Positions 2,477-53,364 of a DNA stretch of 64,000 bases are shown here, in pieces (position 1 is the first letter of the stretch; every line of letters starts with the position of its first letter). Location: NCBI GenBank assembly GCA_018303115.1, contig JAGVYT010000001.1, positions 10,279 to 74,278 on the forward strand, written 5' to 3'. The translations under genes and the position numbers were made by a program. The DNA is from Candidatus Woesearchaeota archaeon. GTDB lineage: Archaea > Nanobdellota > Nanobdellia > Woesearchaeales > UBA10216. The notes under the pieces are model-generated. The model had not been told where the DNA came from. It saw only the letters and a list, made by a program, of their open reading frames with translations, and did not search any database.

Positions 2477-3139
2477 TCATTCAAAGTAAATAAACTCGTA
2501 ATCGCCCGTATAGCCAAGGCGCTCAAAAAGCCACACCCACTCCTCAGGCCTGAAAAAAGACTCTGCAGTCAGCGCCCAGCACTCAAGGTTAAACAGCTCA
2601 AGCTCATTCCTGTAAGATTCCATTGTAACATACTTATTCCTGCCAACCCTTTCAATCTCACTCAATGCAGTCTGCAATTCAGGGAGGGTAAGGTTATGCA
2701 GGGTGTTAAGGGATATAACCAAATCAAACTCCTTGTCCCCAAACCCGTAAGGCTCCTGCGCCCTGTGCACGAAAAGACTGCTTTTAACCTCCTCCTTGGC
2801 ATTTTTTATGGCATATTCCGAAATGTCAAACCCCTTAACTTCGCATTTTGGAAGCAGCTTCTTAAACTCATAAAGAAGAAACGCCTTTCCGCACCCAACA
2901 TCCAGTATTTTTGCGTTTTCCTGAAGGTTGTAAGCCTCAATAAGCTTTTTCGCGACAGTCTCCCACCTTCCGTCATACCTGTAGCCGCCATAGCCGTATC
3001 TCCTATCCCCGTCCCAGTATTCCCGGCCATACTTCCTGGATATTTTCATGCACTCAACTTTATCATCATTCATTCTTCCGATACAATCCCTTTTCGACCT
3101 TTTATGCAGCGGCGTTATAATAGCCAACAGTTTTCCCAT
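2477..3139 (-). CDS. class I SAM-dependent methyltransferase
   Basis: Motif I LDVGCGKAF, acidic residue at GFDIS, motif II FDLVIS. The ORF caller's start is a GTG; first ATG (MGKLL) used. Confidence 0.65.
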   Translation of the reverse strand: MGKLLAIITPLHKRSKRDCIGRMNDDKVECMKISRKYGREYWDGDRRYGYGGYRYDGRWETVAKKLIEAYNLQENAKILDVGCGKAFLLYEFKKLLPKCEVKGFDISEYAIKNAKEEVKSSLFVHRAQEPYGFGDKEFDLVISLNTLHNLTLPELQTALSEIERVGRNKYVTMESYRNELELFNLECWALTAESFFRPEEWVWLFERLGYTGDYEFIYFE

Positions 3140-24454: not shown

Positions 24455-24489
24455 GCAGCGTTAGCCACTAACTGCTGCGGTTATTGTGA

Positions 24490-25446
24490 TTAAACAACTA
24501 AGGAACTGCTTTCCCTATACCACTTTACGAATTCTTCCATTCCCTGCTCAACAGAAACCGAAGGCTTAAAGCCAATAAGAAGGGAAGCCTTGCTTATGTC
24601 CGCATAAGTCGCTTTCATATCGCCGGGCTGCTCGCCTTCAACAGCAACATCTGCTTTCTTCCCAAGAAGCTTCTCTATAACACCTATAAAATCAACAAGC
24701 TTAAGCGGCTTTGAACTGCCAATGTTAATCACCTCAAAACCCATATCAGCTTCCATTGCCTTTACCAAGCCGGCAACAGCATCCTTAACATAAGTGTAGT
24801 CCCGCATGCTAGAGCCATCGCCAAAAACCCTGACAGGCAGCTGCCTGCTGATTCTGTCTGTAAAAATATAAGGAGCCATGTCAGGCCTTCCACGAGGCCC
24901 GTAAACTGTAAAGAACCTCAGACAAACAGACTTAATACCGTAAAGGTTATGGTAAATCCTGCAGATATGCTCTGCTGCAAGCTTGCTGACGCCATAAGGC
25001 GAATCAGGAACAGTCAAGCCGCTTTCCGAAAATGGAATCCTCGCAGAGCCGTAAACGCTTGACGAGGATGCAAACACAAACTTTTTTACTTTGCTTTTGA
25101 CGCACGCGTCAAGAACATTTATTGTGCCGTTAACATTTGTGCCAAAATAAGATACCGGGTCATTAACAGAAGGCCTAACCCCTGTTTTTGCAGCTATATG
25201 AAAAACATAATTTATCTTATGCTGCCGAAATACACCACTAACATCTTCTTTTTTCCTTACGTCACCCTCCACCAAAACAAAATTCTTATCGTCCAACAGC
25301 CCTCTTATGTTGGCTTCCTTTACGGATTTAGGATAGTTTTCCTCAAAATTATCAAAGCACACTACTTTCATCCCCCTGCCCAGAAGTTCCTCGCATAAGT
25401 GAGAGCCTATAAAGCCCGCACCGCCGGTTACAAGAGCTGTTTCCAT
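24490..25446 (-). CDS. NAD-dependent nucleotide-sugar epimerase (GalE/WbpP-like)
   Basis: [10 protein letters not shown] Rossmann motif, YGVSKLAAE (YxxxK). Confidence 0.75.
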   Translation of the reverse strand: METALVTGGAGFIGSHLCEELLGRGMKVVCFDNFEENYPKSVKEANIRGLLDDKNFVLVEGDVRKKEDVSGVFRQHKINYVFHIAAKTGVRPSVNDPVSYFGTNVNGTINVLDACVKSKVKKFVFASSSSVYGSARIPFSESGLTVPDSPYGVSKLAAEHICRIYHNLYGIKSVCLRFFTVYGPRGRPDMAPYIFTDRISRQLPVRVFGDGSSMRDYTYVKDAVAGLVKAMEADMGFEVINIGSSKPLKLVDFIGVIEKLLGKKADVAVEGEQPGDMKATYADISKASLLIGFKPSVSVEQGMEEFVKWYRESSSLVV

Positions 25447-25555
25447 AACCAGCAGGGTTTCAGCAGGGTATAAATATGTTTTTCTTTCCGATAAAGTATC
25501 TACGAACCTACAAACTCGAAAGCATATTAAATATCGTTTTTTACCCTAATCAACG

Positions 25556-25586
25556 CCATTAAGCGAATATTTATCTCGCTTAATGG
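25556..25586. repeat. perfect 11-bp palindromic hairpin CCATTAAGCGA-N9-TCGCTTAATGG at left edge of AT-rich island
   Basis: Read directly. Confidence 0.7.
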
Positions 25587-25656
25587 GTGTTATGCTCAAT
25601 TCAGAATTCAGGTTTGAAGCGTTACATTTATATCTTTAAAGATTTTCAAGTTAAAT

Positions 25657-26043
25657 ATGAAACCAGAAGATTACTTCAGAAATGGCAAAGTGTATGTTTG
25701 GAAAGAAACTTTTGCCGTTGTGAAATCAAAGAAAACATATCTCAATGCTTTTGCTAATATCATTGATAAGAATGAAACAACTGTAATTATTGACCAATCC
25801 AAATTCAATGAGAAAGACGCAATTGAAATTGAAAGAGATTGGAAGATATTAACTTTTGATATGGTTTTACCATTTGGATTGGTAGGATTTATGGCAAAAG
25901 TTTCTCAAGCCCTCGCAGATGAAAAAATATCTATTTTTGCCATTTCTGCCTATTCAACAGACCATATTCTTGTGAAAGAAAAAGACGTAACAAAAGCAAT
26001 AAAGAAACTTGAAAATCTTGGTTGCATCGTTGAAAAGAAGTAA
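25657..26043 (+). CDS. ACT-domain-like small protein (function unknown)
   Basis: 128 aa, weak resemblance to ACT/RAM-type ligand-binding folds. Located in the AT-rich island. Confidence 0.3.
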   Translation: MKPEDYFRNGKVYVWKETFAVVKSKKTYLNAFANIIDKNETTVIIDQSKFNEKDAIEIERDWKILTFDMVLPFGLVGFMAKVSQALADEKISIFAISAYSTDHILVKEKDVTKAIKKLENLGCIVEKK

Positions 26044-26060
26044 CGCCCGAATTCTGAACT

Positions 26061-26098
26061 CGAAATTTTTGCCTTCGGCATCGTTGCACTAAATTTTA
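26061..26098 (+). repeat. island direct repeat A, copy 1 (CGAAATTTTTGCCTTCGGCATCGTTGCACTAAATTTTA)
   Basis: 38-nt exact match with 27730-27767. Contains UUCG-loop hairpin TGCC-TTCG-GCA. Confidence 0.8.
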
Positions 26099-26122
26099 TT
26101 CCTAACGGAGAGCATAACACGC

Positions 26123-26767
26123 ATGCGATACGTTAAGTTCAATAATTTCAGGGGCTTTACGATAATGGGGCGGTTTTCAATTCGAAATATTTTAACACCT
26201 ATTCAATATTTTAAAATTATGGATAGTAAGAATAAGCCAAAATACGAATTTACTAATAAAATTACCGGTTCTTCTCTTCCCACTGATACTTTTCTAGAAA
26301 AATTAAGAGAATTCCTAACCAATAATAGCTTTTCTTGTTCTCAGACAAAAGAAAAGACTGGAGAAGCAAAAACCACAGGAGTCGGAGTAACAATGGAAGG
26401 AGACTTGGGTGGAGGTATTGCTCATTCAGATATTATCACAAATAAATGGAATCCGTTTAATATTAAATGCGGTGGAAAAACATGTTCTTTCTTAGGTAGA
26501 TTTAAAGGAAATATTAAACTGACAGAAATGGCTAAATATAGTAAAAAGAAAAGAGATATACATTATGAATTAAAAGATTACAATTTAACAGGCAATATTG
26601 ATTTTTCACCATACGGTTTTTGGATGTTTATTTTATTCTGCGTAGGTATATACCTCAGTTTTAAATTTTCAACTGGTTTTTGGATTGGGAAAAAGAGTTT
26701 ATGGAAAGATGGATACCTTGGGCTTTTGGAGTTGCTTCTATACTATTCGCTTTTGTTGGTGGAATGA
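26123..26767 (+). CDS. hypothetical protein with C-terminal TM segment
   Basis: AT-rich ORF. C-terminal hydrophobic stretch. 3' end overlaps the next ORF by 88 nt in another frame (possible frameshift). Confidence 0.3.
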   Translation: MRYVKFNNFRGFTIMGRFSIRNILTPIQYFKIMDSKNKPKYEFTNKITGSSLPTDTFLEKLREFLTNNSFSCSQTKEKTGEAKTTGVGVTMEGDLGGGIAHSDIITNKWNPFNIKCGGKTCSFLGRFKGNIKLTEMAKYSKKKRDIHYELKDYNLTGNIDFSPYGFWMFILFCVGIYLSFKFSTGFWIGKKSLWKDGYLGLLELLLYYSLLLVE

Positions 26768-26868
26768 CTATAAGAGATATAGTTGGTCTGATAAAGGATA
26801 AGCATGAAAAATTATTAAAAGATGCTGTAAAAGAGATAGACAAAGAAACCAAACGTTCAACAAAATAA
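26680..26868 (+). CDS. small membrane protein (single TM)
   Basis: 62 aa with WIPWAFGVASILFAFVGG helix and a charged tail. May be the displaced C-terminus of the upstream ORF. Confidence 0.3.
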   Translation: MDWEKEFMERWIPWAFGVASILFAFVGGMTIRDIVGLIKDKHEKLLKDAVKEIDKETKRSTK

Positions 26869-26881
26869 TAAAACGACTGCT

Positions 26882-26906
26882 CACTAACTTTACAGTCCTT
26901 CGGACA
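26882..26906 (+). repeat. island repeat C, copy 1 (CACTAACTTTACAGTCCTTCGGACA; GTCC-TTCG-GAC tetraloop hairpin)
   Basis: Shares CAGTCCTTCGGACA with 27622-27635 and CTAACTTTACAG with 29783-29794. Confidence 0.65.
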
Positions 26907-26915
26907 TTTACAAAA

Positions 26916-27314
26916 TCAATCCATCTTAACCAATTCTTCCGTAGAATAAACCCGAATTGTATTTTGCTTTTCTTTCAAATCCCTATCATTGCTCCACAAA
27001 TTGCATCTTAATTTTAGGGCAAGAGCCAAATATGGGACATCTTTTGGGTCTGGAGAAATCTTTTCGGCTTTTTCGATGAAAGGCTCAATTTCTTTTTTTG
27101 GCATTAGCATAACATTTCGTTCAAACAAATCAAAAAGGTCGTTAAAATTTTCCTCATTCCTTTTGGTCTTTCCTTCCAGATAGTCCTTGTATTTTCTGAA
27201 TTCCTCAAAAATAAATTCAGGTGCATAGAGTTTATGCTTAAACAGAATGTCTGATGTTCCGCTTTCTTTCAGCAAAGCTGCAAAAAGAACATTTGAATCT
27301 ATCACTAAATCCAT
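26916..27314 (-). CDS. vapC: PIN-domain ribonuclease toxin (VapC-like)
   Basis: N-terminal VIDSNVLFAAL with conserved Asp, later acidic residues (PDPKDVPYLALAL, SNDRD). Confidence 0.7.
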   Translation of the reverse strand: MDLVIDSNVLFAALLKESGTSDILFKHKLYAPEFIFEEFRKYKDYLEGKTKRNEENFNDLFDLFERNVMLMPKKEIEPFIEKAEKISPDPKDVPYLALALKLRCNLWSNDRDLKEKQNTIRVYSTEELVKMD

Positions 27315-27316
27315 GA

Positions 27317-27556
27317 TTAAGCCTTTTTGTATCTTTTAGCTAGATTTTTGTTTAGTTCTCTTCCTAATCTTAATGCATCTTCCTCAGTCAGAGTACTATC
27401 GGACTTGAATTTTTTCAAAAATTCCAAATCCTTTATTCTTTGCATAAATGCTTGCCTGGCTATCTCAGACCAATTCATCTCTGGGAATGTTTCCATTTTA
27501 TGTTTCAGTTCTGATGGAACTGCTAAAGTCATAGTTGTCATGTTCTTTACCTCCAA
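27317..27556 (-). CDS. vapB: VapB-like antitoxin
   Basis: 79-aa ORF immediately upstream of the PIN gene on the same strand (2-nt gap). Confidence 0.5.
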   Translation of the reverse strand: MEVKNMTTMTLAVPSELKHKMETFPEMNWSEIARQAFMQRIKDLEFLKKFKSDSTLTEEDALRLGRELNKNLAKRYKKA

Positions 27557-27613
27557 TTATGTGTAAATATGTATAATATGTTCAAATATATAAAACTTAC
27601 TATTTCTGCCCCT

Positions 27614-27635
27614 CAACTTTTCAGTCCTTCGGACA
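27614..27635 (+). repeat. island repeat C, copy 2 (CAACTTTTCAGTCCTTCGGACA); followed by a third UUCG hairpin TCTGC-TTCG-GCAGA at ~27643-27656
   Basis: Read directly. Confidence 0.65.
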
Positions 27636-27729
27636 GCTACTCTGCTTCGCAGAAATTCATGCAATTCGGTGACAATCTTTAAAAAATAATAAAAACGGCT
27701 GTCCCGCCGTCCTAAAGTTCGCTTTAACC

Positions 27730-27767
27730 CGAAATTTTTGCCTTCGGCATCGTTGCACTAAATTTTA
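27730..27767 (+). repeat. island direct repeat A, copy 2
   Basis: Exact 38-nt repeat of 26061-26098. Confidence 0.8.
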
Positions 27768-27844
27768 GTCCCTGCAAGTATTCGGGAGAGATTAACAGCG
27801 ATCGCATACGTTCAACGCAATAAAATTTAAGTTTCCTAGAAAAC

Positions 27845-27879
27845 GGGAATTCTCAGAGGTCATTCGCAAACTTCAGTTA
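27845..27879 (+). repeat. island direct repeat B, copy 1 (GGGAATTCTCAGAGGTCATTCGCAAACTTCAGTTA)
   Basis: 35-nt exact match with 29616-29650. Confidence 0.8.
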
Positions 27880-28115
27880 AGTCCGATTTTTGCGGACAAC
27901 TCAAAACCCTCTTCAGTAAGCCTTGTTTTCAGGTCAGAGCATTACTTTCTTGCCCTTCCGCTTTCTGTCAATGCTTCTACAATGTCTACTACTGAGAACC
28001 ACCATCCATCATTAAACCAAGTTCTTCTGATTTTTTTGCCTTAAAATACTACTAGAGCATTATTTTGGTTAGTCATTTTATTACTTCAACTGCATTATTT
28101 CCATTCATAGCATTA

Positions 28116-28991
28116 TCAATCTGCCTCAGAAAATATTTGGCTAATGATTTCATTTTCTTTTTGCGTAAAAGGTATATCTGGATTGTCATGGAAATAAAGA
28201 GAACGATTAGAACGATTATTAATAAGGTGGGTGTATCCAACTATTAGGTTCACTCTTCTATAAACTTCTTTTTGCTCAAAGAATCCTTTTTCCCTTCTAT
28301 TCCCATCTATGTATCCAATTTGCCGGCCATCTTTTTCAATTTGGCAATAACCCTTTATAGCATTTCGAAGGCTAGACACATCAGCAAATAATGTATTTAT
28401 AATAAGAATATTCTTAAATCCTTTTCTCAATTGCCGTGTTTTTCCTTTTAATAAATCATACAGTCTATAACAATCACTATTTTGTGTTACCTCATTGACT
28501 ACAAAATGCCCGCTTAATTTATTTCCCGATTTAAATTCTTCTAACATTGCAGTAATCTTATCTGTTACATGTTTATCTTCATTTAATACAGCTACCTCTA
28601 CTATAATATCCTCTTGGTCTAGTTTTATCAAGAAATCAGGGTTTTTATCAAAACCATCTATTTTTGGCTGATAACAAACATAAGGAATATTAATCTTCTT
28701 TAAATAAGCCCAAACATCAATTTCTGATATTATTCCGTATACTTGCGCAACTCCTCCTTTAAGATATTCAAGTATATGTTTCTTATGCGGATTAATTTCA
28801 TCTGCACCCAAATCATTTAAGTTACTTTCTAAATGCTGTAACTTTGGTTCTCTGTGTTTTATCAACCAGATTAAAGCTGATGGTTTATTTTTTCCTGATT
28901 CTTCATTAATCCAATTATCAGTGATAAGACTTTTTAGTAAGGGTAAACTATTTACATTAATATTAATTGTTTGTTTATCAAATTGGTTCAT
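28116..28991 (-). CDS. hypothetical protein, co-transcribed downstream of the RelE/AbrB pair
   Basis: 291 aa, AT-rich, no recognisable motif. ATGA-type 4-nt overlap with the RelE gene. Confidence 0.4.
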   Translation of the reverse strand: MNQFDKQTININVNSLPLLKSLITDNWINEESGKNKPSALIWLIKHREPKLQHLESNLNDLGADEINPHKKHILEYLKGGVAQVYGIISEIDVWAYLKKINIPYVCYQPKIDGFDKNPDFLIKLDQEDIIVEVAVLNEDKHVTDKITAMLEEFKSGNKLSGHFVVNEVTQNSDCYRLYDLLKGKTRQLRKGFKNILIINTLFADVSSLRNAIKGYCQIEKDGRQIGYIDGNRREKGFFEQKEVYRRVNLIVGYTHLINNRSNRSLYFHDNPDIPFTQKENEIISQIFSEAD

Positions 28992-29233
28992 TTGTAAACA
29001 TCCTTTCGGTGATCAAAACAATTTATTATGATACTATCTTTTTCTAATCTGTAAATTATCCTATAAGGGGGAATTCTTATACTTCGATGCCCTTTTAGCT
29101 GATACTGCAATGGTTTTCCTGATTCTGGAAGTTCGCCCAGTTTCCTAATATTTTTAATGAGTTTCAATCTCGTAGGCTTATCTTTAATCTTTCTGAATTC
29201 TTTCTTAAATTCTTCAGAAAATATTATCTGCAT
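28988..29233 (-). CDS. RelE/ParE-family toxin
   Basis: YRIIYRLEKDSIIINCFDHRKDVY matches the RelE/ParE C-terminal signature. Confidence 0.75.
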   Translation of the reverse strand: MQIIFSEEFKKEFRKIKDKPTRLKLIKNIRKLGELPESGKPLQYQLKGHRSIRIPPYRIIYRLEKDSIIINCFDHRKDVYK

Positions 29234-29234
29234 T

Positions 29235-29519
29235 TTAAGCCATCAACAAATCGTCTATATCTTCATCACTCATTTTAGTATCTATTTTAACTACTCTGCC
29301 TTTCTTAATTTGTTCTTCGCTTCTCTTAATTTTATCTATTAATACCATATCTTCTCTTAAAGCTTCTTTTTTAACTTGCTTTAACATAATATTCCCACCT
29401 TCATTAAATACAATAAACTTAGTTGATGGCTTTATGCCTGCATCTTTCCTTATTTCAGATGGTATTACAATCTGCCCATTCTGAGATATCCTAGTCATAG
29501 CAACTTCCATTTTTATCAC
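29235..29519 (-). CDS. AbrB/MazE/SpoVT-type antitoxin
   Basis: ISQNGQIVIPSEIRK swapped-hairpin motif. 1-nt spacing to the RelE gene. Confidence 0.65.
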   Translation of the reverse strand: MIKMEVAMTRISQNGQIVIPSEIRKDAGIKPSTKFIVFNEGGNIMLKQVKKEALREDMVLIDKIKRSEEQIKKGRVVKIDTKMSDEDIDDLLMA

Positions 29520-29615
29520 CTACAATATATTTTAATATTAAAACATATTTTATATATAAACCTTTTGGTTTTTGGGCTCCAAATTCTATTGTTCCTGGGC
29601 AACCTCCGCTCACGA

Positions 29616-29650
29616 GGGAATTCTCAGAGGTCATTCGCAAACTTCAGTTA
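29616..29650 (+). repeat. island direct repeat B, copy 2
   Basis: Exact 35-nt repeat of 27845-27879. Confidence 0.8.
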
Positions 29651-29651
29651 T

Positions 29652-29757
29652 ATCAAGTTGAGTAAATAGAGGAACTTGATTGCATCCATTGTTGCTACCG
29701 GACTCAACTTGATTATTAGGAAGTTGACCATGAAGTTCCAATATTTCGTCAACTTCC
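29652..29757. repeat. cluster of inverted repeats built on a CAACTTGA-like core (ATCAAGTTGAG/CTCAACTTGAT 29652-62/29703-13; GGAAGTTGAC/GTCAACTTCC 29719-28/29748-57)
   Basis: Read directly. Lies at right edge of AT-rich island, upstream of the GT2 gene at 29843. Confidence 0.6.
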
Positions 29758-29842
29758 CATAAGTCCGATGTTATACCAGTCGCTAACTTTACAGCTCACG
29801 TATTCCAAAAATTTAAATACTCTCCCAAGACACCGCTGCAAG

Positions 29843-30772
29843 ATGGCAACCGAGCTCTCTGTTGTAATCCCGGCGTATAACGAACAGGATAACATCCAGC
29901 CCCTCACTCAGGAGCTCATAAGCGTTCTTAATTCATACGGAAAGCCTTACGAAATAATTTTTATTGACGACGGCAGCACTGATGCCACTGCCGAGAAAAT
30001 CGCACTCCTCCATGAAAAAAACAGGAACATCCGCCTAATACAGTTCAGGAAAAACTTCGGGCAAACCGCAGCCCTTGATGCAGGCTTTAAGAATGCCAAC
30101 GGAAAGATTATCATTCCGATGGATTCGGACCTGCAAAACGACCCTGCAGACATACCAAGGCTTCTTTCAGGGCTTAACAATTCAGATGCCGTTGTCGGAT
30201 GGCGCAAAGACAGAAAAGACGCATTGCCAAAACGCCTTTTTTCAAGGCTGGCGAACGCCATGCGAAAGGCGCTTACAGGCGAGCGCATACACGACTCAGG
30301 GTGCACGCTGAAAGCCATCCGGAAGGAAGCAGTGGAGGAGCTTGACCTTTACGGGGAAATGCACCGCTTCATCCCTGCACTGCTTATGTGGAAGGGCTTT
30401 AAGGTTACGGAAGCTGTTGTCAGGCACCGCCCGCGCCATTCAGGAAAAACAAAATACAACTTCAAGCGCCTGCTCAAGGGATTCCTGGACTTGCTTGTGG
30501 TAAAGTTCTGGATGCAATACTCAACCAGGCCGATACACCTCTTCGGGGGATTGGGCATGTTTTTCAGCCTGCTTGGCGTTATCATGGGGCTACACTTAAC
30601 ATTCCTTAAAATATTCAGGGGGGAGCAGCTGGCAAACAGGCCAATGCTTTTGCTGGCAGTGCTACTCGTTGTCCTTGGAACTCAGTTCGTTCTTTTCGGC
30701 TTTATAGCAGACATACTGATAAAAACGCACTACAAGGGAAAGCCGCCTTACTCAATCAAGAGAACGCTCTGA
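29843..30772 (+). CDS. GT2 polyprenol-phosphate hexose synthase (GtrB/DPM1/ArnC-like) with two C-terminal TM helices
   Basis: VVIPAYNEQDNI and the IFIDDGSTD (DxD-type) motif, C-terminal TM pair. TTTAAATA box at 29812-29819. Start at MATELS. Confidence 0.75.
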   Translation: MATELSVVIPAYNEQDNIQPLTQELISVLNSYGKPYEIIFIDDGSTDATAEKIALLHEKNRNIRLIQFRKNFGQTAALDAGFKNANGKIIIPMDSDLQNDPADIPRLLSGLNNSDAVVGWRKDRKDALPKRLFSRLANAMRKALTGERIHDSGCTLKAIRKEAVEELDLYGEMHRFIPALLMWKGFKVTEAVVRHRPRHSGKTKYNFKRLLKGFLDLLVVKFWMQYSTRPIHLFGGLGMFFSLLGVIMGLHLTFLKIFRGEQLANRPMLLLAVLLVVLGTQFVLFGFIADILIKTHYKGKPPYSIKRTL

Positions 30773-30783
30773 CTCCGGTTAAG

Positions 30784-31392
30784 ATGAAACTATTCAATAT
30801 TCTGCGAAACCTCCCAATAGACTTGGGACAGGAGGGTATGCGCTCAAAAACCAAAGGGAAGATTATAGCGCGAAGCCTTGTTCCACAAGCAAAAGAAGGG
30901 CAAACTGCACTTGACTTAGGCTGCAGGGAAGGGACACAGTCAAAATGGCTTGAGAAAAAGGGCTACAAGGTAACAAGCATCGACATAGAAAAAAATTACG
31001 AAAAATGCCTGATAGTTGACTGCAATAAGAAACTGCCATTCAAAACAGGCAGCTTTAACCTCGTCTGGTGCAGCGAGGTCGTTGAACACCTTGAAAACCC
31101 CGGAAAATCCGTTAAGGAAATGAAGCGAGTCCTGAAACCCGGCGGATTGCTTTTGGTTACAACCCCGAACAGCAGGTGCTGGTTTTACAGAATACTATCC
31201 CTGGCGGGCTTTAAGCCGAAAAAAATACAGAACCCCGACCACAAACACTTTTTTGGGGAAAAAGACGTGAAAAGCCTCTTCCAGGACGCAAAAATACTCG
31301 GCTACTTCCCGTATGCGATTTACAAAGCAACCATCGGGAGAAGCCTTAATTTTTTAACACCCACCTTCGTAGTTATTTGGAGAAAATCGTGA
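30784..31392 (+). CDS. class I SAM-dependent methyltransferase (Methyltransf_11-like)
   Basis: ALDLGCREG motif I, VVEHLENP, LKPGGLLLVTTPN. Confidence 0.7.
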   Translation: MKLFNILRNLPIDLGQEGMRSKTKGKIIARSLVPQAKEGQTALDLGCREGTQSKWLEKKGYKVTSIDIEKNYEKCLIVDCNKKLPFKTGSFNLVWCSEVVEHLENPGKSVKEMKRVLKPGGLLLVTTPNSRCWFYRILSLAGFKPKKIQNPDHKHFFGEKDVKSLFQDAKILGYFPYAIYKATIGRSLNFLTPTFVVIWRKS

Positions 31393-37379: not shown

Positions 37380-37498
37380 TGATGAACGGCCATGGCCGCC
37401 CGGGTACACCCGATCCCATTTCGAACTCGGAAGTTAAGCGGGCGCACGTTCCTAAGTGTACTGCACATCGTGTGGGAAATTAGGATCGCTGTTCATCA
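37380..37498 (+). rRNA. rrf: 5S ribosomal RNA
   Basis: Terminal helix TGATGAAC.../...GTTCATCA. Internal CCCGATCCCATTTCGAACTCGGAAGTTAAGC matches the universal 5S loop B/helix III core. ~119 nt. Not adjacent to 16S/23S in this window. Confidence 0.8.
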
Positions 37499-39294: not shown

Positions 39295-39600
39295 ATGACA
39301 TGGAACTGGCTGAAGGGTTATGGTGGCTGGCTTTTGCCTCGCGCTTATACTCCTGAAACTGGAGATGCGGAGAGGCTGCTGGGCAGTTCAGGACGCCTCT
39401 TGCGAATGCAGCGAGAAACCGGGCTGGGGGATAGTGACTTTGAAGAGTATTTGGGGCATTTGGAAGCTCGCAGGGCTTTGGCAAATCAACTCGGAAAAAG
39501 CCCTGACTCAGAACTTGAAGCTAAGATAAGAGAAACAGACGAAAAGATTGACAGACTATTACGGTTTGGTGCTGCCATGCAGCCTTTTCCGCGCTATTAA
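39295..39600 (+). CDS. hypothetical small protein
   Basis: 101-aa ORF, Gly/Arg/Glu-rich. Weak. Confidence 0.25.
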   Translation: MTWNWLKGYGGWLLPRAYTPETGDAERLLGSSGRLLRMQRETGLGDSDFEEYLGHLEARRALANQLGKSPDSELEAKIRETDEKIDRLLRFGAAMQPFPRY

Positions 39601-40697
39601 AAATCCATTGTTATCTTCCCTGTTTTCTCGTCTACAAACTTGATTCTGCGGTTGTCTTTCTGAAGCTGTTTTACAGCCTCCCAGCCGCCTTGCTTTCTGG
39701 CTGCGTTCACTGCTTCCAGAAGCTGTTTTATTTCTTGGTAATTCTCGTAAATTAATTCGCCGCTGCGACGGTTTTTTTCAATAAGATTCTTTGAAGCAGC
39801 GATAGCTTCCTCCTGGTGCTGTATGACGGCTTTCAGGCGGGAAATTTCCGAGTCATAGCGGGAAGGCATCTCAGCGGCAGTTGCGGAGAAGAAATCTTCC
39901 AAGGCTTCGCTGTAGCTGTCGAAGCTCTTTTTTTCGTAATTTTCATAGTATTTGAGACTGATGGGAACAGCGTCAATCGCTGCCTTGTTTTCGTAAATTA
40001 CCAACGGAAAAGGCTTGCTGTTCAGGAGCTTTTTGAGCGACTGGAGGATTTTTTGGGCGCTAGCAGATGTAACTGTGGCAGGCGCTGTTTTTTTGTTGAG
40101 CCCTGAGAGAAGGCAAAGCTCCTCGGCATACAAACCGCCTAAGGATAATTCAAGGGCAAAAAACCTGACCAAGTCTGTTTTGTTAGTGGATTTCAGCATC
40201 TGCAACAGCTGTTCATCACTGAAAGCCCTTGGGTCTGCAACAGCAGGGGGAAGCTTGTAAGGCCTTCCTGCAGCCATCTCGCGGGTGCTCCAGGCCTGTT
40301 TTTCTGCTACTGCAAGTATTTTCCCCTCATGGACGAGAATGATGTTACCCTTGCTGAAAAGCTCCAAAAACAGGCTAAAAAGGCTGTTTTTTGAGGAAAA
40401 ATCGAGCTGCAGGATTCTCTCAAAACCCGGCTGGCTCAGTGCTTTCAGGGTGCTGTTATTGAGTTTTTTCCGCAATAGCGAACAAAAGCCGGCTGCAGCA
40501 GACTGCTCCTTCTCTGAAGCCACATAACAGGCGTATGGAACCCTCACTTTTAGCATTGCGCGGCCCTTGCCTGTCATGTAAAACTGCAGAATAAGCCCCT
40601 TTCTGCCCTGCTGGTATATCTGGCTAAGCCTCGCCTTTATAAGCTTCTGCAGCTCACTAGCCAAATAAAGTATTTCAACAGCTGAAAATTGCTTCAT
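39597..40697 (-). CDS. NFACT-family protein (FbpA/Rqc2/Tae2 homologue, ribosome quality control)
   Basis: N-terminal FSAVEILYLASELQKLIKARLSQIYQ...LILQF is the NFACT-N signature, followed by coiled coil and NFACT-R-like region. Confidence 0.65.
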   Translation of the reverse strand: MKQFSAVEILYLASELQKLIKARLSQIYQQGRKGLILQFYMTGKGRAMLKVRVPYACYVASEKEQSAAAGFCSLLRKKLNNSTLKALSQPGFERILQLDFSSKNSLFSLFLELFSKGNIILVHEGKILAVAEKQAWSTREMAAGRPYKLPPAVADPRAFSDEQLLQMLKSTNKTDLVRFFALELSLGGLYAEELCLLSGLNKKTAPATVTSASAQKILQSLKKLLNSKPFPLVIYENKAAIDAVPISLKYYENYEKKSFDSYSEALEDFFSATAAEMPSRYDSEISRLKAVIQHQEEAIAASKNLIEKNRRSGELIYENYQEIKQLLEAVNAARKQGGWEAVKQLQKDNRRIKFVDEKTGKITMDF

Positions 40698-40738
40698 AAA
40701 ACCTCACTTTTGACTCATAGGAAAGTATTTAAATAAGT

Positions 40739-41332
40739 TTGCCCTTAAAAAGCTGCATGTGGAATCCTTTACGGGTATTCTTTGAGCATGACTACCGCTG
40801 GAACGAGCTTGACAAAACCCTCACAGACGCCTTTGAAAAAGTGAAGGCTGAGCGAAGCCTTGTTTTTTCCTGGCTGAATTATTTCAGGAAAAAGGACAAT
40901 GAAAATGAAAAACTGCAGCAGAAGGTGCAATACGCCCTTGGAAAGCACGATGCGGAAATTGATGCAATAAAAAATGAGATAAAAGGGCTTAAAGAAGCGG
41001 TAAAATCAGCCAAAATCAGTCCGTTTCCGGACCAAATCCGGACTAAGTCCGGACTAGAAAGCGGACTAGTTTCCGGACCTAAATTCCAGGGCGGCTTTGT
41101 GAACAGGATTGTGGCAATGGTAAGGCCCCAAAGGAAGGAATTTGTAATGCAAAAGATACTTGACATGGTTGAAAAAGGGGCATATACGACAAAGCAAGTT
41201 GAGACGGTAATTGTTCGCGAAAAGGGCCTTTGCGGGAGAACCGCGTTCTACGATTACATGAAAGAGCTAAAATACCAGAACCTGGTAAGGACTGCGCAGA
41301 AAAAGGGGAGAAAAATACTGATTTCTGAATAA
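40739..41332 (+). CDS. hypothetical coiled-coil protein with C-terminal winged-helix-like domain; contains an in-frame CCGGAC tandem-repeat array
   Basis: N-terminal heptad-rich region. Linker encoded by repeat array 41018-41079. C-terminal RIVAMVRPQRKEF..ILDMVEKGAYTTKQVE resembles wHTH. Confidence 0.4.
   Translation: MPLKSCMWNPLRVFFEHDYRWNELDKTLTDAFEKVKAERSLVFSWLNYFRKKDNENEKLQQKVQYALGKHDAEIDAIKNEIKGLKEAVKSAKISPFPDQIRTKSGLESGLVSGPKFQGGFVNRIVAMVRPQRKEFVMQKILDMVEKGAYTTKQVETVIVREKGLCGRTAFYDYMKELKYQNLVRTAQKKGRKILISE
41018..41079. repeat. tandem ~11-nt iteron-like array containing palindromic TCCGGA/GTCCGGAC cores (5 units), inside the CDS
   Basis: agtccgtttccggac|caaatccggac|taagtccggac|tagaaagcggac|tagtttccggac, read directly. 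Confidence 0.7.
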
Positions 41333-41337
41333 TTTTC

Positions 41338-41392
41338 AAGTCCGTTTCCGGACTAGTTTCCGGACTAAGTCCGGACCGAACCCGGACTAAAG
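41338..41392. repeat. second copy of the CCGGAC iteron-like array, filling the convergent intergenic space
   Basis: aagtccgtttccggac|tagtttccggac|taagtccggac|cgaacccggac. Shares a 15-nt exact block and unit order with the copy at 41018. Confidence 0.7.
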
Positions 41393-41902
41393 CTTTTTGA
41401 TGCGGTTAGCAAGCTTTTTGATGTCTGTTTCCTTAACTTTTGTCGCATCAAATTTGATTATGCGATGAGCTTTTTCTGTTGTCTCAACCAAGATAACATC
41501 AAATATTTCAGCATCAAGGTTTTCCCTTACCTTGGCCCTGCCATAGCCCCTTTTGGTGAGCCTGCGCTTAAGCTCCGGGATACTGCAGCTCAGCACAACA
41601 CAGGCAGATACCGCCTTATTAGGGAGAAAGTGAGAAAGGTGGGAATCCACAATAAGGCCCTTTTTGCCCTTTTTGGCAGCCGAATCCCTCACTTTCAGGA
41701 CTGCACGAGTGAAAAGTGAGGGGTCTACTATGGCGGTTTTACGCCTTTTATCGTATTTCTCAGCCAAATTGGCTTTTTTTATGAGCGCTGAGCCGGATAA
41801 GTACGCATAATCCAGAAAAAGTGAGAGTCTTTTTGCTATTACAGACTTGCCTGTGCCTGGAGTTCCTGTTACAACTATCACTTTTAGGCTGTTTTTGGCC
41901 AT
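41387..41902 (-). CDS. Fap7/adenylate kinase isoenzyme 6-like nucleoside-triphosphatase
   Basis: P-loop VTGTPGTGKS, LIVDSHLSHF, and VLSCSIPELKRRLTKRGY...KVRENLDAEIF resemble AK6/Fap7. Confidence 0.6.
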   Translation of the reverse strand: MAKNSLKVIVVTGTPGTGKSVIAKRLSLFLDYAYLSGSALIKKANLAEKYDKRRKTAIVDPSLFTRAVLKVRDSAAKKGKKGLIVDSHLSHFLPNKAVSACVVLSCSIPELKRRLTKRGYGRAKVRENLDAEIFDVILVETTEKAHRIIKFDATKVKETDIKKLANRIKKL

Positions 41903-48555: not shown

Positions 48556-48998
48556 CGCGCGAGTTTGAGTATTATCTGGAAAAGAACTTGGCAAAGAGGT
48601 CTGTTATAAATCGGTCTTTAGCAAAATCGCTTATGGAAAAAGCAGAACTCAGGCTCAAGCTATTGAACGAGGACAAGATAACAGATGAGATGGCTTCAAT
48701 AATGTTTGAGGAAGCGTATGAAGCTGTAAGGGAAGCCTCACAGTCACTAATGCAGGTTAAAGGATTTAAGCCATATTCGCATGATGCATTGATAGCGTTT
48801 TTAATAAAAGAAAAACTGATGCCCGAGCAGTTTATAAAATCATTTGACAGGTATAGGATATTAAGAAACAAATCGGTTTACGAAGCACAAAGGGTATCAA
48901 TAGAAACTTGTAAAGAAGCGCTTCAATTTGCAAAAAGGCGTATTCCTGAAGTTAAAAACAAGCTTTTTTCGCTATTAAACTCCAATATTATGCAGTAG
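48552..48998 (+). CDS. HEPN-domain protein, partner of the MNT gene
   Basis: ATGA overlap with the MNT gene. Helical 148-aa protein with R-x(4-6)-[HY]-like RNKSVYE segment. Confidence 0.5.
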
Positions 48999-51435
48999 AA
49001 TCAGTGTTGTTGTTCTCCTTCGCTATCTTCGCAACCGCAACAACCTCATCATTTTCTCCAAGGCGCATTATCCTTGCTCCCTGGGTGTTCCTTCCGATAA
49101 CTGAAATGTCCTTGGAGGGAACTCTAATCATGATGCCGTGCCTGCTCATGAACATAATCCCGTCATCATCAGAAACAGAAGCGATGCCAACCACCTTGCC
49201 GTTTCTCTCAGAAGTTTGTATGTTTATTACGCCATAGCCGCCACGGTTAATCAAGCGGTAGTCAGATACCGGAGTTCGCTTGCCATATCCCATTCTGCAG
49301 ACTGTAAGAAGGCTTTTTTGCTCTTCTGCAACAACCATGCCGATTACAGCATCCCCTCTCAGCTTAATGCCTCTAACCCCCTTTGAAGAACGGCCTGTAA
49401 TCCGGATGTCCGATTCCTTAAACCTCACTGCATAACCGTTCTGAGTTGCAAGAATAATCTGCTTTGTGCCGTCAGTCAGCTTAACGCTAACCAATTCATC
49501 ACCCTCGTCAAGCGTGATTGCAATTATACCACCTTTTCTTGGGTTTGAGTAAGCGTCCAGCCTTGTCTTCTTTATAGTGCCGTTCTTTGTTGCCATGACA
49601 ACATAGCCCTTGAAGTCTGCTACAGGAACAAATGCCGTAACCTGCTCGCCCTCACTAAGGTTGAGAAGGTTCACGATAGCCTTGCCTCTAGCATTGCGCC
49701 CTGCGTCAGGAATCTCATAAACCTTCAGCCAGTGCACCACACCGTGGTTTGTGAAGAAAAGAATGAAGGAATGCGTGTTTGCAACAAAAAGGTGCTCTAC
49801 AAAATCGTCCTCCCTAGTTGAAGCAGCAATAACCCCCTTTCCGCCGCGGTGCTGCTGCCTGTATTCAGTTAGCAAAGTGCGCTTGGCGTAGCCGGAATGG
49901 CTGACTGTTATGGCAACCTCCTCAGGCTTTATAAGGTCCTCATGCACGAAATCATCCTCCTTAACATCCTCTATCTGAGTCCTTCTTCCATCGCCATACT
50001 TATCCTTAATCTCCCTTAGCTCTGATTTTATTATGTCCAGTATCTTCTGGGGCGAGCCAAGAATGTCCCTGAGCTCTGCTATTTGGGATTTAAGCTGCGA
50101 GTCCTCATCGCGCAAAGCCAGCTGCTCAAGTGAGGAAAGCTTCTGCAGCCTCATCTCAAGAACTGCAACAGACTGCTTCTCGCTAAGAGTGAATTTTTGC
50201 ATCAGCGAAGTTTTGGCAGCAGCAGCATCCCTGGATTCTTTTATTGCCTTTACAACAGCGTCTATGTTCTTCAACGCAGCAACAAGGCCCTCAACTATGT
50301 GGAGCCTTTCCAAAGCACGGTTAAGCTCAAACTCGCATCTTTTTGTAACAACGCTTTTTCGGTGCCCTATAAACCCCAAGAGAAGCCTGTCCAGGCTTAC
50401 GGTCATTGGCATTCCGTCGACCAGACAAATCAGCGCAACAGAGATTGTTAATTCGAGCCGGGAATGGCTGAAGAGCTGATTCAAAACAACAGCTGAATTG
50501 GAGTTTTTCTTCAGCTCTATAACTATGCGCATGCCCTCCCTGTCGCTCTCATCCCTTATGTCTGAAATATCGCGCACTGTCCTATTCTTGACAAGCTCTG
50601 CAATCTCCTCAAGAAGAAGGGACTTGTTAACCTGGTAGGGAATCTCTGAAACTATTATGCACTCATGGTCCTTTTTCACCTCTACGAAAGTGCGCCCCCT
50701 TACCTTTAGCAGGCCCCTGCCTGTGCTGTATGCAGCCATTATTCCGGACCTGCCCCTGATTACGCCTCCTGTAGGAAAATCAGGGCCTGGCATAACATTC
50801 ATAAGCTCGTTAATCGGGGCATCAGGCCTGTCAATCTTCATAATCACAGCATCAGTAGCTTCAGAAAGGTTGTGCGGCGGTATGTTTGTAGCCATGCCAA
50901 CAGCTATGCCAGAGCTGCCGTTAACTAACAGGTTTGGGAACTTTGAGGGCAGGACAACCGGCTCTGTAACTGAGTTGTCAAAGTTAGGAACAAAGTCTAC
51001 TGTCTTTTTGTCAATATCCAAAAGAAGCTCTTCTGAAAGCGCTCTAAGGCGGGCTTCTGTATAGCGAAACGCAGCTGCCCTATCCCCATCAATAGAACCC
51101 CAATTGCCCTGCCCGTCAACCAAAGGGTATCTCAAAGAGAAGTCCTGCGCCATCCTCACAAGCGCATCGTAAATGGCAGCATCCCCGTGCGGATGATAGC
51201 GAGCCATGGCGTTGCCAATAATAGTAGCGGACTTGCGGAACGCTTTGCTATGCAGCAATCCAAGCCTGTACATGGTATACAAAACGCGCCTTTGGACAGG
51301 CTTCAGGCCATCCCTTATGTCAGGCAAGGCTCTGGAAACCAGCACAGACATAGCGTAATCTAGGTAAGAAACCTTCATCTCGTCTTCAATTTCACGATGC
51401 AAAACCCTCTGGTTCTGTTCTGTTTGAGGCGCCAT
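48988..51435 (-). CDS. gyrA: DNA gyrase subunit A
   Basis: [34 protein letters not shown], active-site AAFRYTE, six C-terminal beta-pinwheel repeats. Start at MAPQTEQN. Confidence 0.9.
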
Positions 51436-51571
51436 TTTTAAGCCAAAAATTAGGTGGAAAAACAGCCGTTTTCCCGACGACAAACATAAAGGAAGGGGTG
51501 TTTAAAAAGGTTTGGGTAATTTAAGCAGTTTTGCGTTCATTTTCAGCAACGACCGCGGCAATGGCAGAAAA

Positions 51572-51988: not shown

Positions 51989-52333
51989 ATGGGACAACAA
52001 ACATACCAGTATGGTGTATTAATGCGGACTTATGGCGATGCAAAAAAGGCTTCTGCTGAAGGAAATACCAGAATTGCTGAGCTTTTATACCCGGAAACAC
52101 TTAGAATGGCTCAAGAGAGACTGAAGTTTCTTGGAAGGGAAAGGGCTCCCCACCTGGTTCAAGAAAGAAAAGACCTTGGGCTGTTAATTGAAGCCCTGGG
52201 AAGAAGGTATGAAGAGGGATATAGGTTACCGGATTTAACCGAGGAGTCTAGAGAAGACTCCCCCCTAGACGCGCTTACAAGAAAGGAAATAAAACACTTA
52301 GTTGCAATGTCAACCTTTCCTAAGGAGATGTAG
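51989..52333 (+). CDS. hypothetical protein
   Basis: 114-aa ORF with TTTAAATA box at 51957-51964, 24 nt upstream. Confidence 0.4.
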   Translation: MGQQTYQYGVLMRTYGDAKKASAEGNTRIAELLYPETLRMAQERLKFLGRERAPHLVQERKDLGLLIEALGRRYEEGYRLPDLTEESREDSPLDALTRKEIKHLVAMSTFPKEM

Positions 52334-52955
52334 TCCTATCGCTGCCCTGCGCTTTCCCTGAATAATTTCTTTCTTCAGAATCCCGGCTTTCGCCCTCTGG
52401 AGAAACTTGCTGAACGTTTTCAGAAGAAGCTGCTTGGGGCTCCCCTTTTGCCTCTTCCACCCTGAACTTTTCCTTAACCTCCTCAGCGTTTCTCAGGTCA
52501 AAGTAGTTGAAGAAGCGCTCAGTCAGCCTGAGCAGCTTGGTTCTGCCGTGCTTTTCCCTTGAGATGAAACCAGAACTTTCCAATTCGCGAAGGTGGTCGT
52601 AAGCCTTGTTTGTCCTTACTTTAATAATGCCGGACTGCAAAACAGGCGCCTTCCATGCTATAACTGCAAGCGTTTCCATCATTGTTTTCGTAAGCTCTGT
52701 CTCTGCCACTATTTTCCTAACTACGCTTGAGTATTGCTCTCTTACAGTGAGCTTCCAGCCATCGCCCTCGTCAATAAGCAGCAGTGAGGAATTTTTAGAG
52801 TCGTAATCATTTTTTAATTCTTGCAGTTGCTGTATGATAGTAACGGCAGTAGTGCGACATAGCCTTGCTATTTCCTCTACGCTCATCTTTTTGCCTGAGG
52901 AGAACAACACGGCCTCAACCTTGTTTTTCAGCTCTTCCATTTTGGATTCGTGCAT
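52320..52955 (-). CDS. scpB: segregation and condensation protein B
   Basis: Two winged-helix repeats (EAVLFSSGKKMSVEEIARL..., ETLAVIAWKAPVLQSGIIKVRTNKAYDHLRELESSGFI). Start at MHESKMEE. Confidence 0.7.
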   Translation of the reverse strand: MHESKMEELKNKVEAVLFSSGKKMSVEEIARLCRTTAVTIIQQLQELKNDYDSKNSSLLLIDEGDGWKLTVREQYSSVVRKIVAETELTKTMMETLAVIAWKAPVLQSGIIKVRTNKAYDHLRELESSGFISREKHGRTKLLRLTERFFNYFDLRNAEEVKEKFRVEEAKGEPQAASSENVQQVSPEGESRDSEERNYSGKAQGSDRTTSP

Positions 52956-52965
52956 TTTCGTTCTG

Positions 52966-53364
52966 TTAATGGCGTTTAGTTTTAATTTTTTGCTTATCAG
53001 AACGATTAACTCTGGAGCGCTTTGCATCCTTTAGAATTTTTCTTAGTTTCTGCTTAAGCCCCGGCAAGTCTTTCTTGATAACATCCCAAGTCAAATCAAG
53101 GTCTATCCCAAAATACATGTGGATTAATATATCCCTAAAACCTGCAATTTGGCGCCAGCTTATTTCTGGATACTTATCCCGAAAATTTTTGGGAATGTTT
53201 TTAGCCGCCTCTCCAATAATTTCCAAATTTCTAATAACAGCATCCTGAATTATTTTTGATTTAAGAAACCCCTGCCTCGAAATTCCCTCAGTATATTTTT
53301 CTGCTTTCTGAATGCTGTCCAAAATGTGCCCTACGAAAACAGCAGGGTCTTTAGGAAGATTCAT
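52966..53364 (-). CDS. hepT: HEPN/DUF86 toxin (HepT-like)
   Basis: RQIAGFRDILIHMYFGIDLD contains R-x4-H. 4-nt overlap with upstream MNT gene. Confidence 0.7.
   Translation of the reverse strand: MNLPKDPAVFVGHILDSIQKAEKYTEGISRQGFLKSKIIQDAVIRNLEIIGEAAKNIPKNFRDKYPEISWRQIAGFRDILIHMYFGIDLDLTWDVIKKDLPGLKQKLRKILKDAKRSRVNRSDKQKIKTKRH

Follow-up and report, generated by a model that had tools for sequence, protein, structure and literature searches.

How does a tandem repeat come to be written twice at a single locus, once as translated sequence within a gene and once directly behind its stop codon, and what is it there for? The question is posed by a 64,000-nt stretch of a contig from a Candidatus Woesearchaeota archaeon, which is referred to below as the window and whose positions supply all coordinates. 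The gene concerned encodes a 191-residue protein with a predicted coiled coil followed by a predicted winged helix–turn–helix (wHTH) domain; the array within its coding sequence (CDS) is called A1 and the one past the stop codon A2. Here we report that A1 and A2 are conserved cis-elements under selection at the level of the DNA and linked to the wHTH gene family, and we weigh the roles that they may play.

Two helically phased arrays in and behind one gene

Both arrays follow the same general plan, in which a head palindrome (GTCCG-N4-CGGAC) is succeeded by three to four direct TCCGRAC units at steps of 11–12 bp (Table 1). The steps after the head are 11, 11, 12 and 12 bp in A1, and Tandem Repeats Finder (TRF) returns a period of 11–12 for the arrays. 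A2 begins 8 bp past the TAA stop codon of the wHTH gene (41330–32), and its final unit includes the stop codon (CTA, 41387–89) of the convergent AAA_18/Fap7-like gene. The locus thus presents two blocks of 4–5 units in helical phasing beside the gene of a small protein whose predicted wHTH suggests DNA binding. The window has 11 sites of the heptamer TCCGGAC where 3.0 would be expected, a count that none of 100 shuffles reached, and 9 of these 11 sites fall within A1 and A2; runs of at least three units (regular expression C[CG]G[AG]AC) are confined window-wide to the two arrays, as against 0.03 per shuffled window. A preliminary description of the window, made from its letters, had claimed two ~11-bp CCGGAC arrays with palindromic cores, one in frame and the other filling the convergent gap and overlapping the Fap7-like stop codon, and both arrays are found where it placed them. 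Each copy has the head palindrome and a perfect 17-bp palindrome. The latter is not kept as such in orthologues, where the codon for Lys97 is AAA in 56% and disrupts the symmetry while the direct units persist.

The 191-residue protein is identical over its full length (100% identity and coverage) to P0001, NCBI J4470_00265 from a Candidatus Woesearchaeota metagenome-assembled genome (MAG), which is annotated as hypothetical. An AlphaFold model based on a 25-sequence alignment predicts a single long helix or coiled coil over residues 4–85, with block-mean confidence scores (pLDDT) of 88–96 across residues 11–80, a disordered segment over residues 86–112, with pLDDT below 50 at 92–112, and a helix plus winged HTH at residues 113–190. 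The residues encoded by A1, 88–108 (SPFPDQIRTKSGLESGLVSGP), sit between the long helix and the winged helix, and A1 therefore encodes a disordered linker, which agrees, as far as a predicted structure can tell, with the earlier placement of the first copy between a coiled coil and a wHTH domain. The protein matches no Pfam, NCBIfam, PHROG or PDB-sequence family, and a Foldseek comparison with the PDB retrieved generic wHTH repressors only (PadR Rv3488, SSV1 F-93, ArsR/NolR and MarR) at E-values of ~1e-2. Nor does it match any of the wHTH families of Pfam (PadR, MarR, ArsR, HTH_Mga) above the gathering threshold; HTH_Mga is reached only by a relative of a second type, described below (L024; 25.5 bits, cut-off 23).

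Conservation, selection on the DNA and the protein family

A genome scan yielded 24 orthologous loci of ~12 kb each from Woesearchaeota and Nanoarchaeia, all of the genomes being MAGs. Because all 24 keep the order of a divergent NFACT_N gene, the wHTH gene and a convergent Fap7-like gene, with UPF0047 and MBF1-like genes usually nearby, the locus is a stable chromosomal one. An array lies 0–45 bp past the stop codon in 22 of the 24 loci, and the internal array occupies the identical protein position in every intact gene of the window's type, at orthologue identities of 35–82%. The preliminary description had raised the prospect that the linker is a lineage-specific insertion, or that distant relatives carry it free of any nucleotide-level repeat. 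Neither is the case: the linker is common to orthologues over the whole of that range of identity, and the distant ones retain both the linker and the repeat in their DNA. Among intervals between units in the family loci, 107 of 147 measure 11 bp and a further 33 measure 12 bp. The distance from the head of A1 to that of A2 varies from 295 to 332 bp, so that the two arrays do not keep a strict helical phase to each other.

Both arrays open with a head palindrome of the form GTYCG-N4-CGRAC, for which 0.38 occurrences are expected per 64 kb and which is absent elsewhere in the flanks; its N4 spacer is invariant across all array heads. Nor do the 64 kb of the window and the ~250 kb of flanks around the orthologues (a census of ~300 kb in total) contain other arrays, so that the unit count proposed earlier gives no array beyond the gene-linked positions. 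The GTCCG-N7-CGGAC hairpin that had been noted at 27881–27897 does exist; its supposed kinship with the arrays probably does not, its spacer being N7 as against the invariant N4. This hairpin lies in a low-GC island (~24000–31000, 0.34–0.40 vs ~0.46 elsewhere) that contains glycosyltransferase and unannotated open reading frames (ORFs).

That selection acts on the DNA is apparent from the way in which the repeat is translated. The A1 unit is read as PD, RT, SGL, GL and SGP, and hence in all three frames, and in the orthologous loci L013–L019 the later units stand in other frames, the peptide SELNPDRKRT replacing SGLESGPVSEP while the units are retained. Third-codon-position identity is 0.77 in the array against 0.55 in the remaining gene; arginine is encoded by CGG or CGA in the array and mostly by AGG elsewhere; and the codon of Ser98 is TCC in 100% of the sequences that have this residue, while positions between the cores (e.g. 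AAA or AAG for Lys97) vary freely. In the protein alignment the linker is the best-conserved part, with R95 and T96 invariant and K97, S98 and G99 conserved in more than 90%, and these residues coincide with the predicted disorder (pLDDT <50).

The two arrays also evolve together. Within each genome A1 and A2 are colinear, with the same units in the same order, and they resemble each other more (similarity 0.62) than arrays from different genomes do (0.49), a within-genome value that none of 5000 permutations matched. At one locus (L009) TACGGAC appears in A1 and A2 alike and, because this unit stands in the coding array, the otherwise 95%-conserved Ser98 becomes Tyr. The heads covary symmetrically: pair 7–16 is CG in 15 cases, UA in 12, UG in 3 and other in 9, pair 4–19 is AU in 13, GC in 10, GU in 3 and other in 13, and the covariation score was matched by 1 of 500 shuffles, a pattern compatible either with a symmetric dimer site or with base pairing. 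The three reading frames of the unit, the frozen synonymous sites, the predicted disorder of the conserved peptide and the concerted change of the arrays together place the constraint on the DNA.

The same association extends across a large protein family. A profile search of 1.84 billion representative proteins recovered 600 clusters, defined at 50% identity, at E ≤1e-3 and 199 at E ≤1e-10, for which neither Pfam nor NCBIfam holds a model. An N-terminal domain with the motif SW..YL..KD and an invariant W39 is found family-wide and is combined with three types of C-terminal wHTH; in some members the coiled coil is very long (up to 412 residues) and SMC-like. Type 1, that of the window, has a wHTH marked by LCGRTAFYDY, the unit CCGRAC, and arrays in the linker and past the stop codon. 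Type 2 (L024, L145, L146, L148 and L149) has an HTH_Mga-like wHTH and the unit RGGACA at steps of 10–12 bp, likewise in the linker and past the stop codon, ahead of the convergent Fap7-like gene, and RGGACA is present in both arrays at 5/5 loci. Types 1 and 2 thus have the N-terminal domain in common and differ in both the wHTH domain and the unit. Type 3 (L153, L154 and L156) is marked by GLCSKSSFYRIL in the wHTH and by the unit GGGACTAT at 3/3 loci, where 10–14 units at 10–11 bp stand immediately upstream of the TATA box of the gene itself and Fap7 is not a neighbour. Two further loci are type-1 variants that do not have the VRT-type linker; both arrays lie downstream of the gene in L152 and upstream of the promoter and its TATA box in L157. 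In the type-2 locus L149, the wHTH gene has three GACATGTCCC-type sites (2919–3002) between its ATG and its TATA box. All cases examined have phased iterons with a GGAC core within ~150 bp of the gene and differ only in where these stand relative to the CDS.

A few alleles deviate from this plan. In L020 (6278–6393, JACPTE010000022.1) the segment encoding the wHTH is gone, a single hybrid array remains and a 130-residue ORF (P0042) enters the 3′ end of Fap7, which looks like a deletion by recombination between A1 and A2 or a collapse of the assembly. In L151 (3001–3470) only the C-terminal half is an ORF (P0064, 125 residues), the array region lies in another frame (LVRFRTKSGLSPDLSPDQNPNQFPNQF) and both arrays have grown to 6–7 units; the contig has 4x coverage, and an indel error is possible. 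In L155 (3100–3163), P0041 and P0053 the reading frame runs on through the downstream array and adds a C-terminal tail (e.g. STDIVRTKYG, NRFVSEPNSY), which overlaps the Fap7 3′ end.

A metagenome-wide pattern search with CCGGAC-N5-CCGGAC-N5-CCGGAC gave at least 120 matches on unrelated and mostly high-GC contigs and is uninformative on Woesearchaeota genomes; neither the wHTH family nor its neighbours are encoded on contigs among the matches listed. Four of these contigs (L033, L034, L062 and L085, mostly of high GC) carry long, perfect 11-bp-phased CCGGAC arrays, with at least 9 registers in L085. These arrays are a different kind of tandem repeat, with no member of the wHTH family nearby.

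Table 1 The arrays, the gene that carries them and the neighbouring features, in window positions
Feature	Position	Strand	Remark
Array A1	41019–41078	+	Within CDS; encodes linker residues 88–108
A1 head palindrome GTCCGTTTCCGGAC (14 bp)	41019–41032	+	
A1 units TCCGGAC	41026, 41037, 41048, 41072	+	
A1 unit AGCGGAC	41060	+	
Array A2	41340–41389	+	Non-coding for the wHTH gene; spans the gap up to the convergent gene
A2 head palindrome GTCCGTTTCCGGAC	41340–41353	+	Same 14-mer as the A1 head
A2 units TCCGGAC	41347, 41359, 41370	+	
A2 unit CCGAAC	41376	+	
A2 unit CCGGAC	41382	+	
Perfect 17-bp palindrome TCCGGACT-A-AGTCCGGA	41037–41053 (A1); 41359–41375 (A2)		Identical copies
wHTH gene, 191-aa product	40757–41332	+	ORF call
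AAA_18/Fap7-like P-loop kinase gene	41387–41902	−	Convergent; Pfam AAA_18 4e-21
NFACT_N (Rqc2-like) gene	39597–40697	−	Divergent; Pfam NFACT_N 1e-49
Palindromic TATA-like element TATTTAAATA	40726–40735		In the NFACT/wHTH gap; assignment read from the sequence
Second-motif copies AAAGTGAG(R)(G)TT	38852, 41627, 41713, 41818, 42121	+	
Second-motif copies AAAGTGAG(R)(G)TT	40542, 40702, 41687	−	

Candidate roles of the arrays

With moderate confidence, we read the arrays as iteron-like sites of the coiled-coil/wHTH protein encoded at the locus, which would likely serve its negative autoregulation. That the protein itself is the factor that binds the arrays seems to us rather likely; the accompanying mechanism of roadblock and autoregulation is a conjecture to which we give somewhat less than an even chance. 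In this mechanism a dimer would occupy the head palindrome GTYCG-N4-CGRAC and further copies would line up on the 2–4 direct TCCGRAC units on one face of the helix, giving two equivalent nucleoprotein complexes ~320 bp apart that bracket the segment encoding the DNA-binding domain. The product bound to A1 would halt RNA polymerase ahead of the transcription of this domain, and the complex on A2, which the coiled coils might tie to A1 in a loop, would close the 3′ end common to the convergent genes. A linker peptide that is predicted to be disordered and tolerates change would allow the internal sites to be written into the CDS as a dual code.

The preliminary description had offered operator arrays bound by the wHTH protein as one of two interpretations, and this one fits all of the comparative evidence, namely the constraint on the DNA, the concerted evolution, the switch of unit with subtype and the arrays at promoters. 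The change of unit sequence along with the wHTH subtype fits a protein that reads its own array, and the 11/12-bp spacing together with the symmetric covariation of the heads is as expected for dimers on one helix face; R1 ParR–parC, compared below, has this geometry too. Furthermore, the arrays of type 3, L157 and L149 stand in classical autoregulatory positions and point to autoregulation as the ancestral role.

Several points weigh against this explanation. The arrays of the window lie inside and after the gene and not at its promoter, so that repression would need a hypothetical roadblock. Divergence of another factor along the lineages could account in part for the match between unit and wHTH type. 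A dedicated autoregulator that has no other target is without obvious purpose, and just one extra-genic cluster of sites was seen, at 2622–2643 in L024, where an unrelated 137-residue ORF has type-2 units (GGGACATGTCCTAAGGACATGAGGACA) a short way upstream of its TATA box; the unit census in which this was the only case covers the 64 kb plus flanks, ~300 kb in all. Finally, the SMC-like members with coiled coils of up to 412 residues look less regulatory than structural.

A second motif also bears on the question. The motif AAAGTGAGG, embedded in the surrounding DNA, clusters at the array locus. In the form AAAGTGAGR it has 10 copies in the window, where 1.7 would be expected, and eight of these lie within 38.8–42.2 kb; in 33 family loci (from L001–L024 and L145–L157) AAAGTGAG is found at 0.69 per kb against ~0.03 expected. 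Its copies occupy conserved offsets in the NFACT and Fap7 CDS, where they encode LKVR, PSLF or LSLF, and their orientation is largely mirrored across the two sides of the wHTH gene. Within Fap7, positions 41684–41722 form an inverted repeat with a 10-bp stem, and type-3 loci hold 5–9 copies of the motif in an 800-bp non-coding upstream region, beside a T-rich stretch and the iterons. A Shine–Dalgarno function was considered for the motif and rejected, as there is no enrichment before start codons and most genes are leaderless with a TATA box ~30 nt upstream. These observations make it more probable that the locus has a role beyond that of a gene under autoregulation.

What else it might be is suggested by analogy with ParR–parC, TubR–tubC and RacA–ram: a centromere-like or chromosome-anchoring landmark, the protein being a centromere-binding or kinetochore-like factor. 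We regard this as unlikely, and equally so its mechanical elaboration, in which the iteron blocks would form a segrosome, the coiled coil would make the link to a motor or to the cell envelope, and autoregulation would be secondary. The binding step is common to this explanation and to autoregulation. TubR is a winged helix–turn–helix centromere-binding protein. Its centromere tubC is split into iteron clusters near tubR, and the complex extends over the promoter and controls expression of the operon (PMC6009700), while R1 parC comprises 11-bp iterons in two sets of five, which serve as operators as well (PMC2241845); two helically phased iteron blocks beside the gene of a small, putatively DNA-binding protein reproduce the architecture of both (PMC2241845, PMC6009700). 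In R1 the likeness extends to the separation of the two direct-repeat blocks and their 11-bp phasing, and the sites are bound cooperatively by ParR dimers and double as autoregulatory operators. Moreover, the family is widespread (600 clusters) and syntenic, each stretch examined has a single array-bearing locus, the coiled coil is conserved, length-variable and at times SMC-like, the second motif is concentrated around the locus, and ScpB and GyrA genes lie ~10 kb off.

Set against these parallels is the lack of a motor. No ParA, ParM, TubZ or SegA-like gene is adjacent, and no actin, tubulin or ParA family occurs in any of the loci examined, the neighbours in the window being NFACT_N, AAA_18/Fap7-like, UPF0047 and MBF1-like genes. 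Pfam, NCBIfam, PDB-sequence and Foldseek comparisons place the protein neither by sequence nor by a convincing fold in ParR, TubR or ParB, and TubR is absent from the best 50 Foldseek PDB matches and from the PDB sequence search. ParR is a ribbon–helix–helix protein, whereas a coiled coil and a winged helix are predicted here; the parC blocks flank a 39-bp promoter, whereas A1 and A2 flank ~260 bp that encode the DNA-binding domain, and one of them is translated. Unlike R1, the locus has no ParM-like motor gene and is chromosomal in DPANN archaea, its binding protein being a prediction; from TubR–tubC it differs in having no TubZ, in the unit sequence and in the gene-internal location. Plain autoregulation, in addition, explains the promoter arrays of type 3 equally well.

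In its broadest form, which we think similarly improbable, the idea would make the NFACT/wHTH/Fap7 locus a landmark on the chromosomes of Woesearchaeota and other Nanoarchaeota, whether centromere- or kinetochore-like or concerned with an unconventional replication control. The wHTH protein would act on the paired iterons and a second factor on the AAAGTGAGG sites, some of which lie within the essential genes next door, the cis-elements would be overprinted on coding DNA in these compact genomes, and A1, the DNA-binding domain and A2 would constitute a swappable specificity cassette. Conventional origins were rejected. An archaeal oriC with origin recognition boxes and Orc1/Cdc6 has no adjacent Orc1/Cdc6 gene here, and there is no Cdc6/AAA family among the 36 window ORFs scanned or the called genes of the related loci; the GC skew of the 64 kb is uninformative on this point. 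As for an iteron replicon, no relatives were found in plasmids or viral contigs, and the DNA between the arrays is ordinary coding sequence; the T-rich stretch beside the arrays of type-3 loci is a weak lead in its direction.

A further suggestion, to which we attach a small chance, is that another factor, be it a transcription factor, a termination factor or archaeal histones, reads the arrays and that their tie to the gene is merely positional. The arrays, ~55–60 bp long with TAA spacers alternating with GC-rich cores at ~11 bp, resemble the footprint of a histone tetramer, and their location at 3′ ends would suit a factor associated with terminators. Their cores and head palindromes are conserved far past a dinucleotide-periodicity signal, though, and they track the gene family despite entirely different neighbours (type-3 loci, L157) and switch their unit with the wHTH subtype.

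We think it slightly less probable again that the arrays work as RNA, their GUCC/GGAC hairpins forming a bidirectional terminator, a stability element for the convergent transcripts or a target that the protein binds as RNA. On either strand the folding of both arrays is more stable than that of shuffled sequences (z −3.0 to −3.9), C-G pairs of the head stem are replaced by U-A in a compensatory manner, and terminator-like consensus hits occur at 41368–41388 (+) and 41035–41016 (−); the scan that gave these hits was built for bacteria, and their T runs fall in the Lys-rich 3′ coding end of Fap7. Archaeal termination does not depend on hairpins, which counts against a role as RNA. The conserved feature is the direct 11-bp repeat and no single pairing, the 17-bp palindrome being broken in 56% of orthologues, and mismatches in the head are C·A on one strand or the other according to the locus, so that neither transcript is consistently favoured. 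The arrays of type 3 and L157 are upstream of the TATA box and are therefore not transcribed with the gene. Rfam, finally, returned no match for the arrays (5S rRNA only in the window and none in four related loci).

It is very unlikely that the arrays are recombination sites, whether for a programmed or frequent deletion of the wHTH segment or as the borders of a swappable cassette of domain and cognate site. The single hybrid array of L020, devoid of the wHTH segment, is the product expected of A1 x A2, and types 1 and 2 combine a common N-terminal domain with different wHTH domains and units. Against this, L020 is a lone deletion variant in a MAG and may be an assembly artefact, no recombinase is encoded nearby, a palindrome with 5-bp arms is far below the size of known core sites, and nearly all genomes keep the full-length gene.

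The other interpretation in the preliminary description, a mobile repeat similar to a miniature inverted-repeat transposable element (MITE) that inserted in frame and again downstream, accounts for the short inverted repeat at the start of each array and for two similar copies close by, and it can be discarded, as the arrays stand at the same two positions in 22 of 24 loci across deep divergence and at the same protein position in every intact orthologue down to 35% identity, synteny is kept, the unit is not dispersed in ~300 kb of window and flanks, target-site duplications are absent, no relatives were found in the viral contig and plasmid collections, and the encoded residues are the most conserved of the protein. 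The idea that the DNA repeat is a by-product of selection for a repeated linker peptide falls just as surely: it can draw on a loose SG-x-x pattern (SGLESGLVSGP), yet one hexamer is translated in three frames (PD, RT, SG), the non-coding A2 holds the same units in the same order, synonymous sites are frozen, and where the unit spacing shifts it is the peptide that shifts and the units that persist.

An internal promoter or start, by which A1 would be the operator of a short wHTH-only product, was likewise considered and rejected, as there is no conserved TATA-like element and a Met after the linker is missing in many orthologues.

Genomic surroundings, known systems and significance

The NFACT and wHTH genes have a common promoter region of 59 bp between their divergent starts; both look leaderless or almost so, and the TATA-like element TATTTAAATA could serve the promoters of both. 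The NFACT protein is just 366 residues long, its sole significant Pfam match is NFACT_N, and no Pfam match was returned for the RNA-binding or C-terminal NFACT domains; the short form recurs in related loci at 364–369 residues. The Fap7-like gene, which also matches NCBIfam PRK03839 ('putative kinase') at 9e-26, under the curated cut-off, is a conserved neighbour in all type-1 and type-2 loci. The GyrA and ScpB genes (48988–51483 and 52320–53027) follow ~8–12 kb downstream of the locus, a proximity that is perhaps relevant only if the locus has a role in chromosome organisation. A lone 5S rRNA gene lies at 37382–37497 (78.9 bits) with no 16S or 23S gene nearby, and ARAGORN found no tRNA genes in the 64 kb.

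Beyond the plasmid centromeres, three classes of known systems invite comparison. In Bacillus subtilis spo0J parS, F sopC and P1 parS, cognate sites lie inside or directly past the gene of the protein that binds them, as A1 and A2 do with respect to their putative binder. Those binders are ParB-family proteins with ParA partners; the spo0J parS is a single 16-bp palindrome and not a phased array read in three frames, and the plasmid sites are untranslated. The iteron initiators RepE, RepA and pi are winged-helix proteins that bind phased direct repeats by their own gene and use an inverted repeat for autorepression, an arrangement that the head palindrome followed by direct units recalls. They differ in their plasmid context, in the AT-rich unwinding element, of which there is none between A1 and A2, and in having two winged-helix domains as opposed to one wHTH with a coiled coil; the present locus shows chromosomal synteny. 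The intragenic sites of lac O2 in lacZ, of PurR in purB and of the CodY and CcpA roadblocks let a regulator block elongation or aid looping. Sites of the lac O2 type are single auxiliary ones in target genes, whereas here a whole array is placed in the linker CDS of the putative regulator itself, family-wide. As judged from its sequence features, the system would function in the manner of iterons or operators whose cognate binder is a small DNA-binding protein, outside the ParR, TubR, ParB and Rep families and with neither motor nor origin partners.

Literature searches on DPANN iterons, Woesearchaeota winged-helix coiled-coil proteins and DPANN centromeres returned nothing relevant. A candidate binding-site array overprinted on the linker-coding part of the putative binder's own gene appears to be undescribed, as do the matching copy past the stop codon, with the pair bracketing the segment for the DNA-binding domain, and the conservation of this layout over a large family in which the unit co-varies with the wHTH subtype. 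The locus offers a clean natural case of dual coding, since the best-conserved peptide of the protein is kept for the underlying DNA array and not for a peptide function, and functional annotation based on conservation would misread such segments. For each of the three subtypes of a large unannotated DPANN family it supplies a DNA motif predicted to be the cognate one, and these motifs give a handle on gene regulation or chromosome organisation in organisms that can barely be cultivated. Should the locus turn out to be a centromere- or origin-like landmark, it would be the first cis-acting chromosome-maintenance element for this archaeal group.

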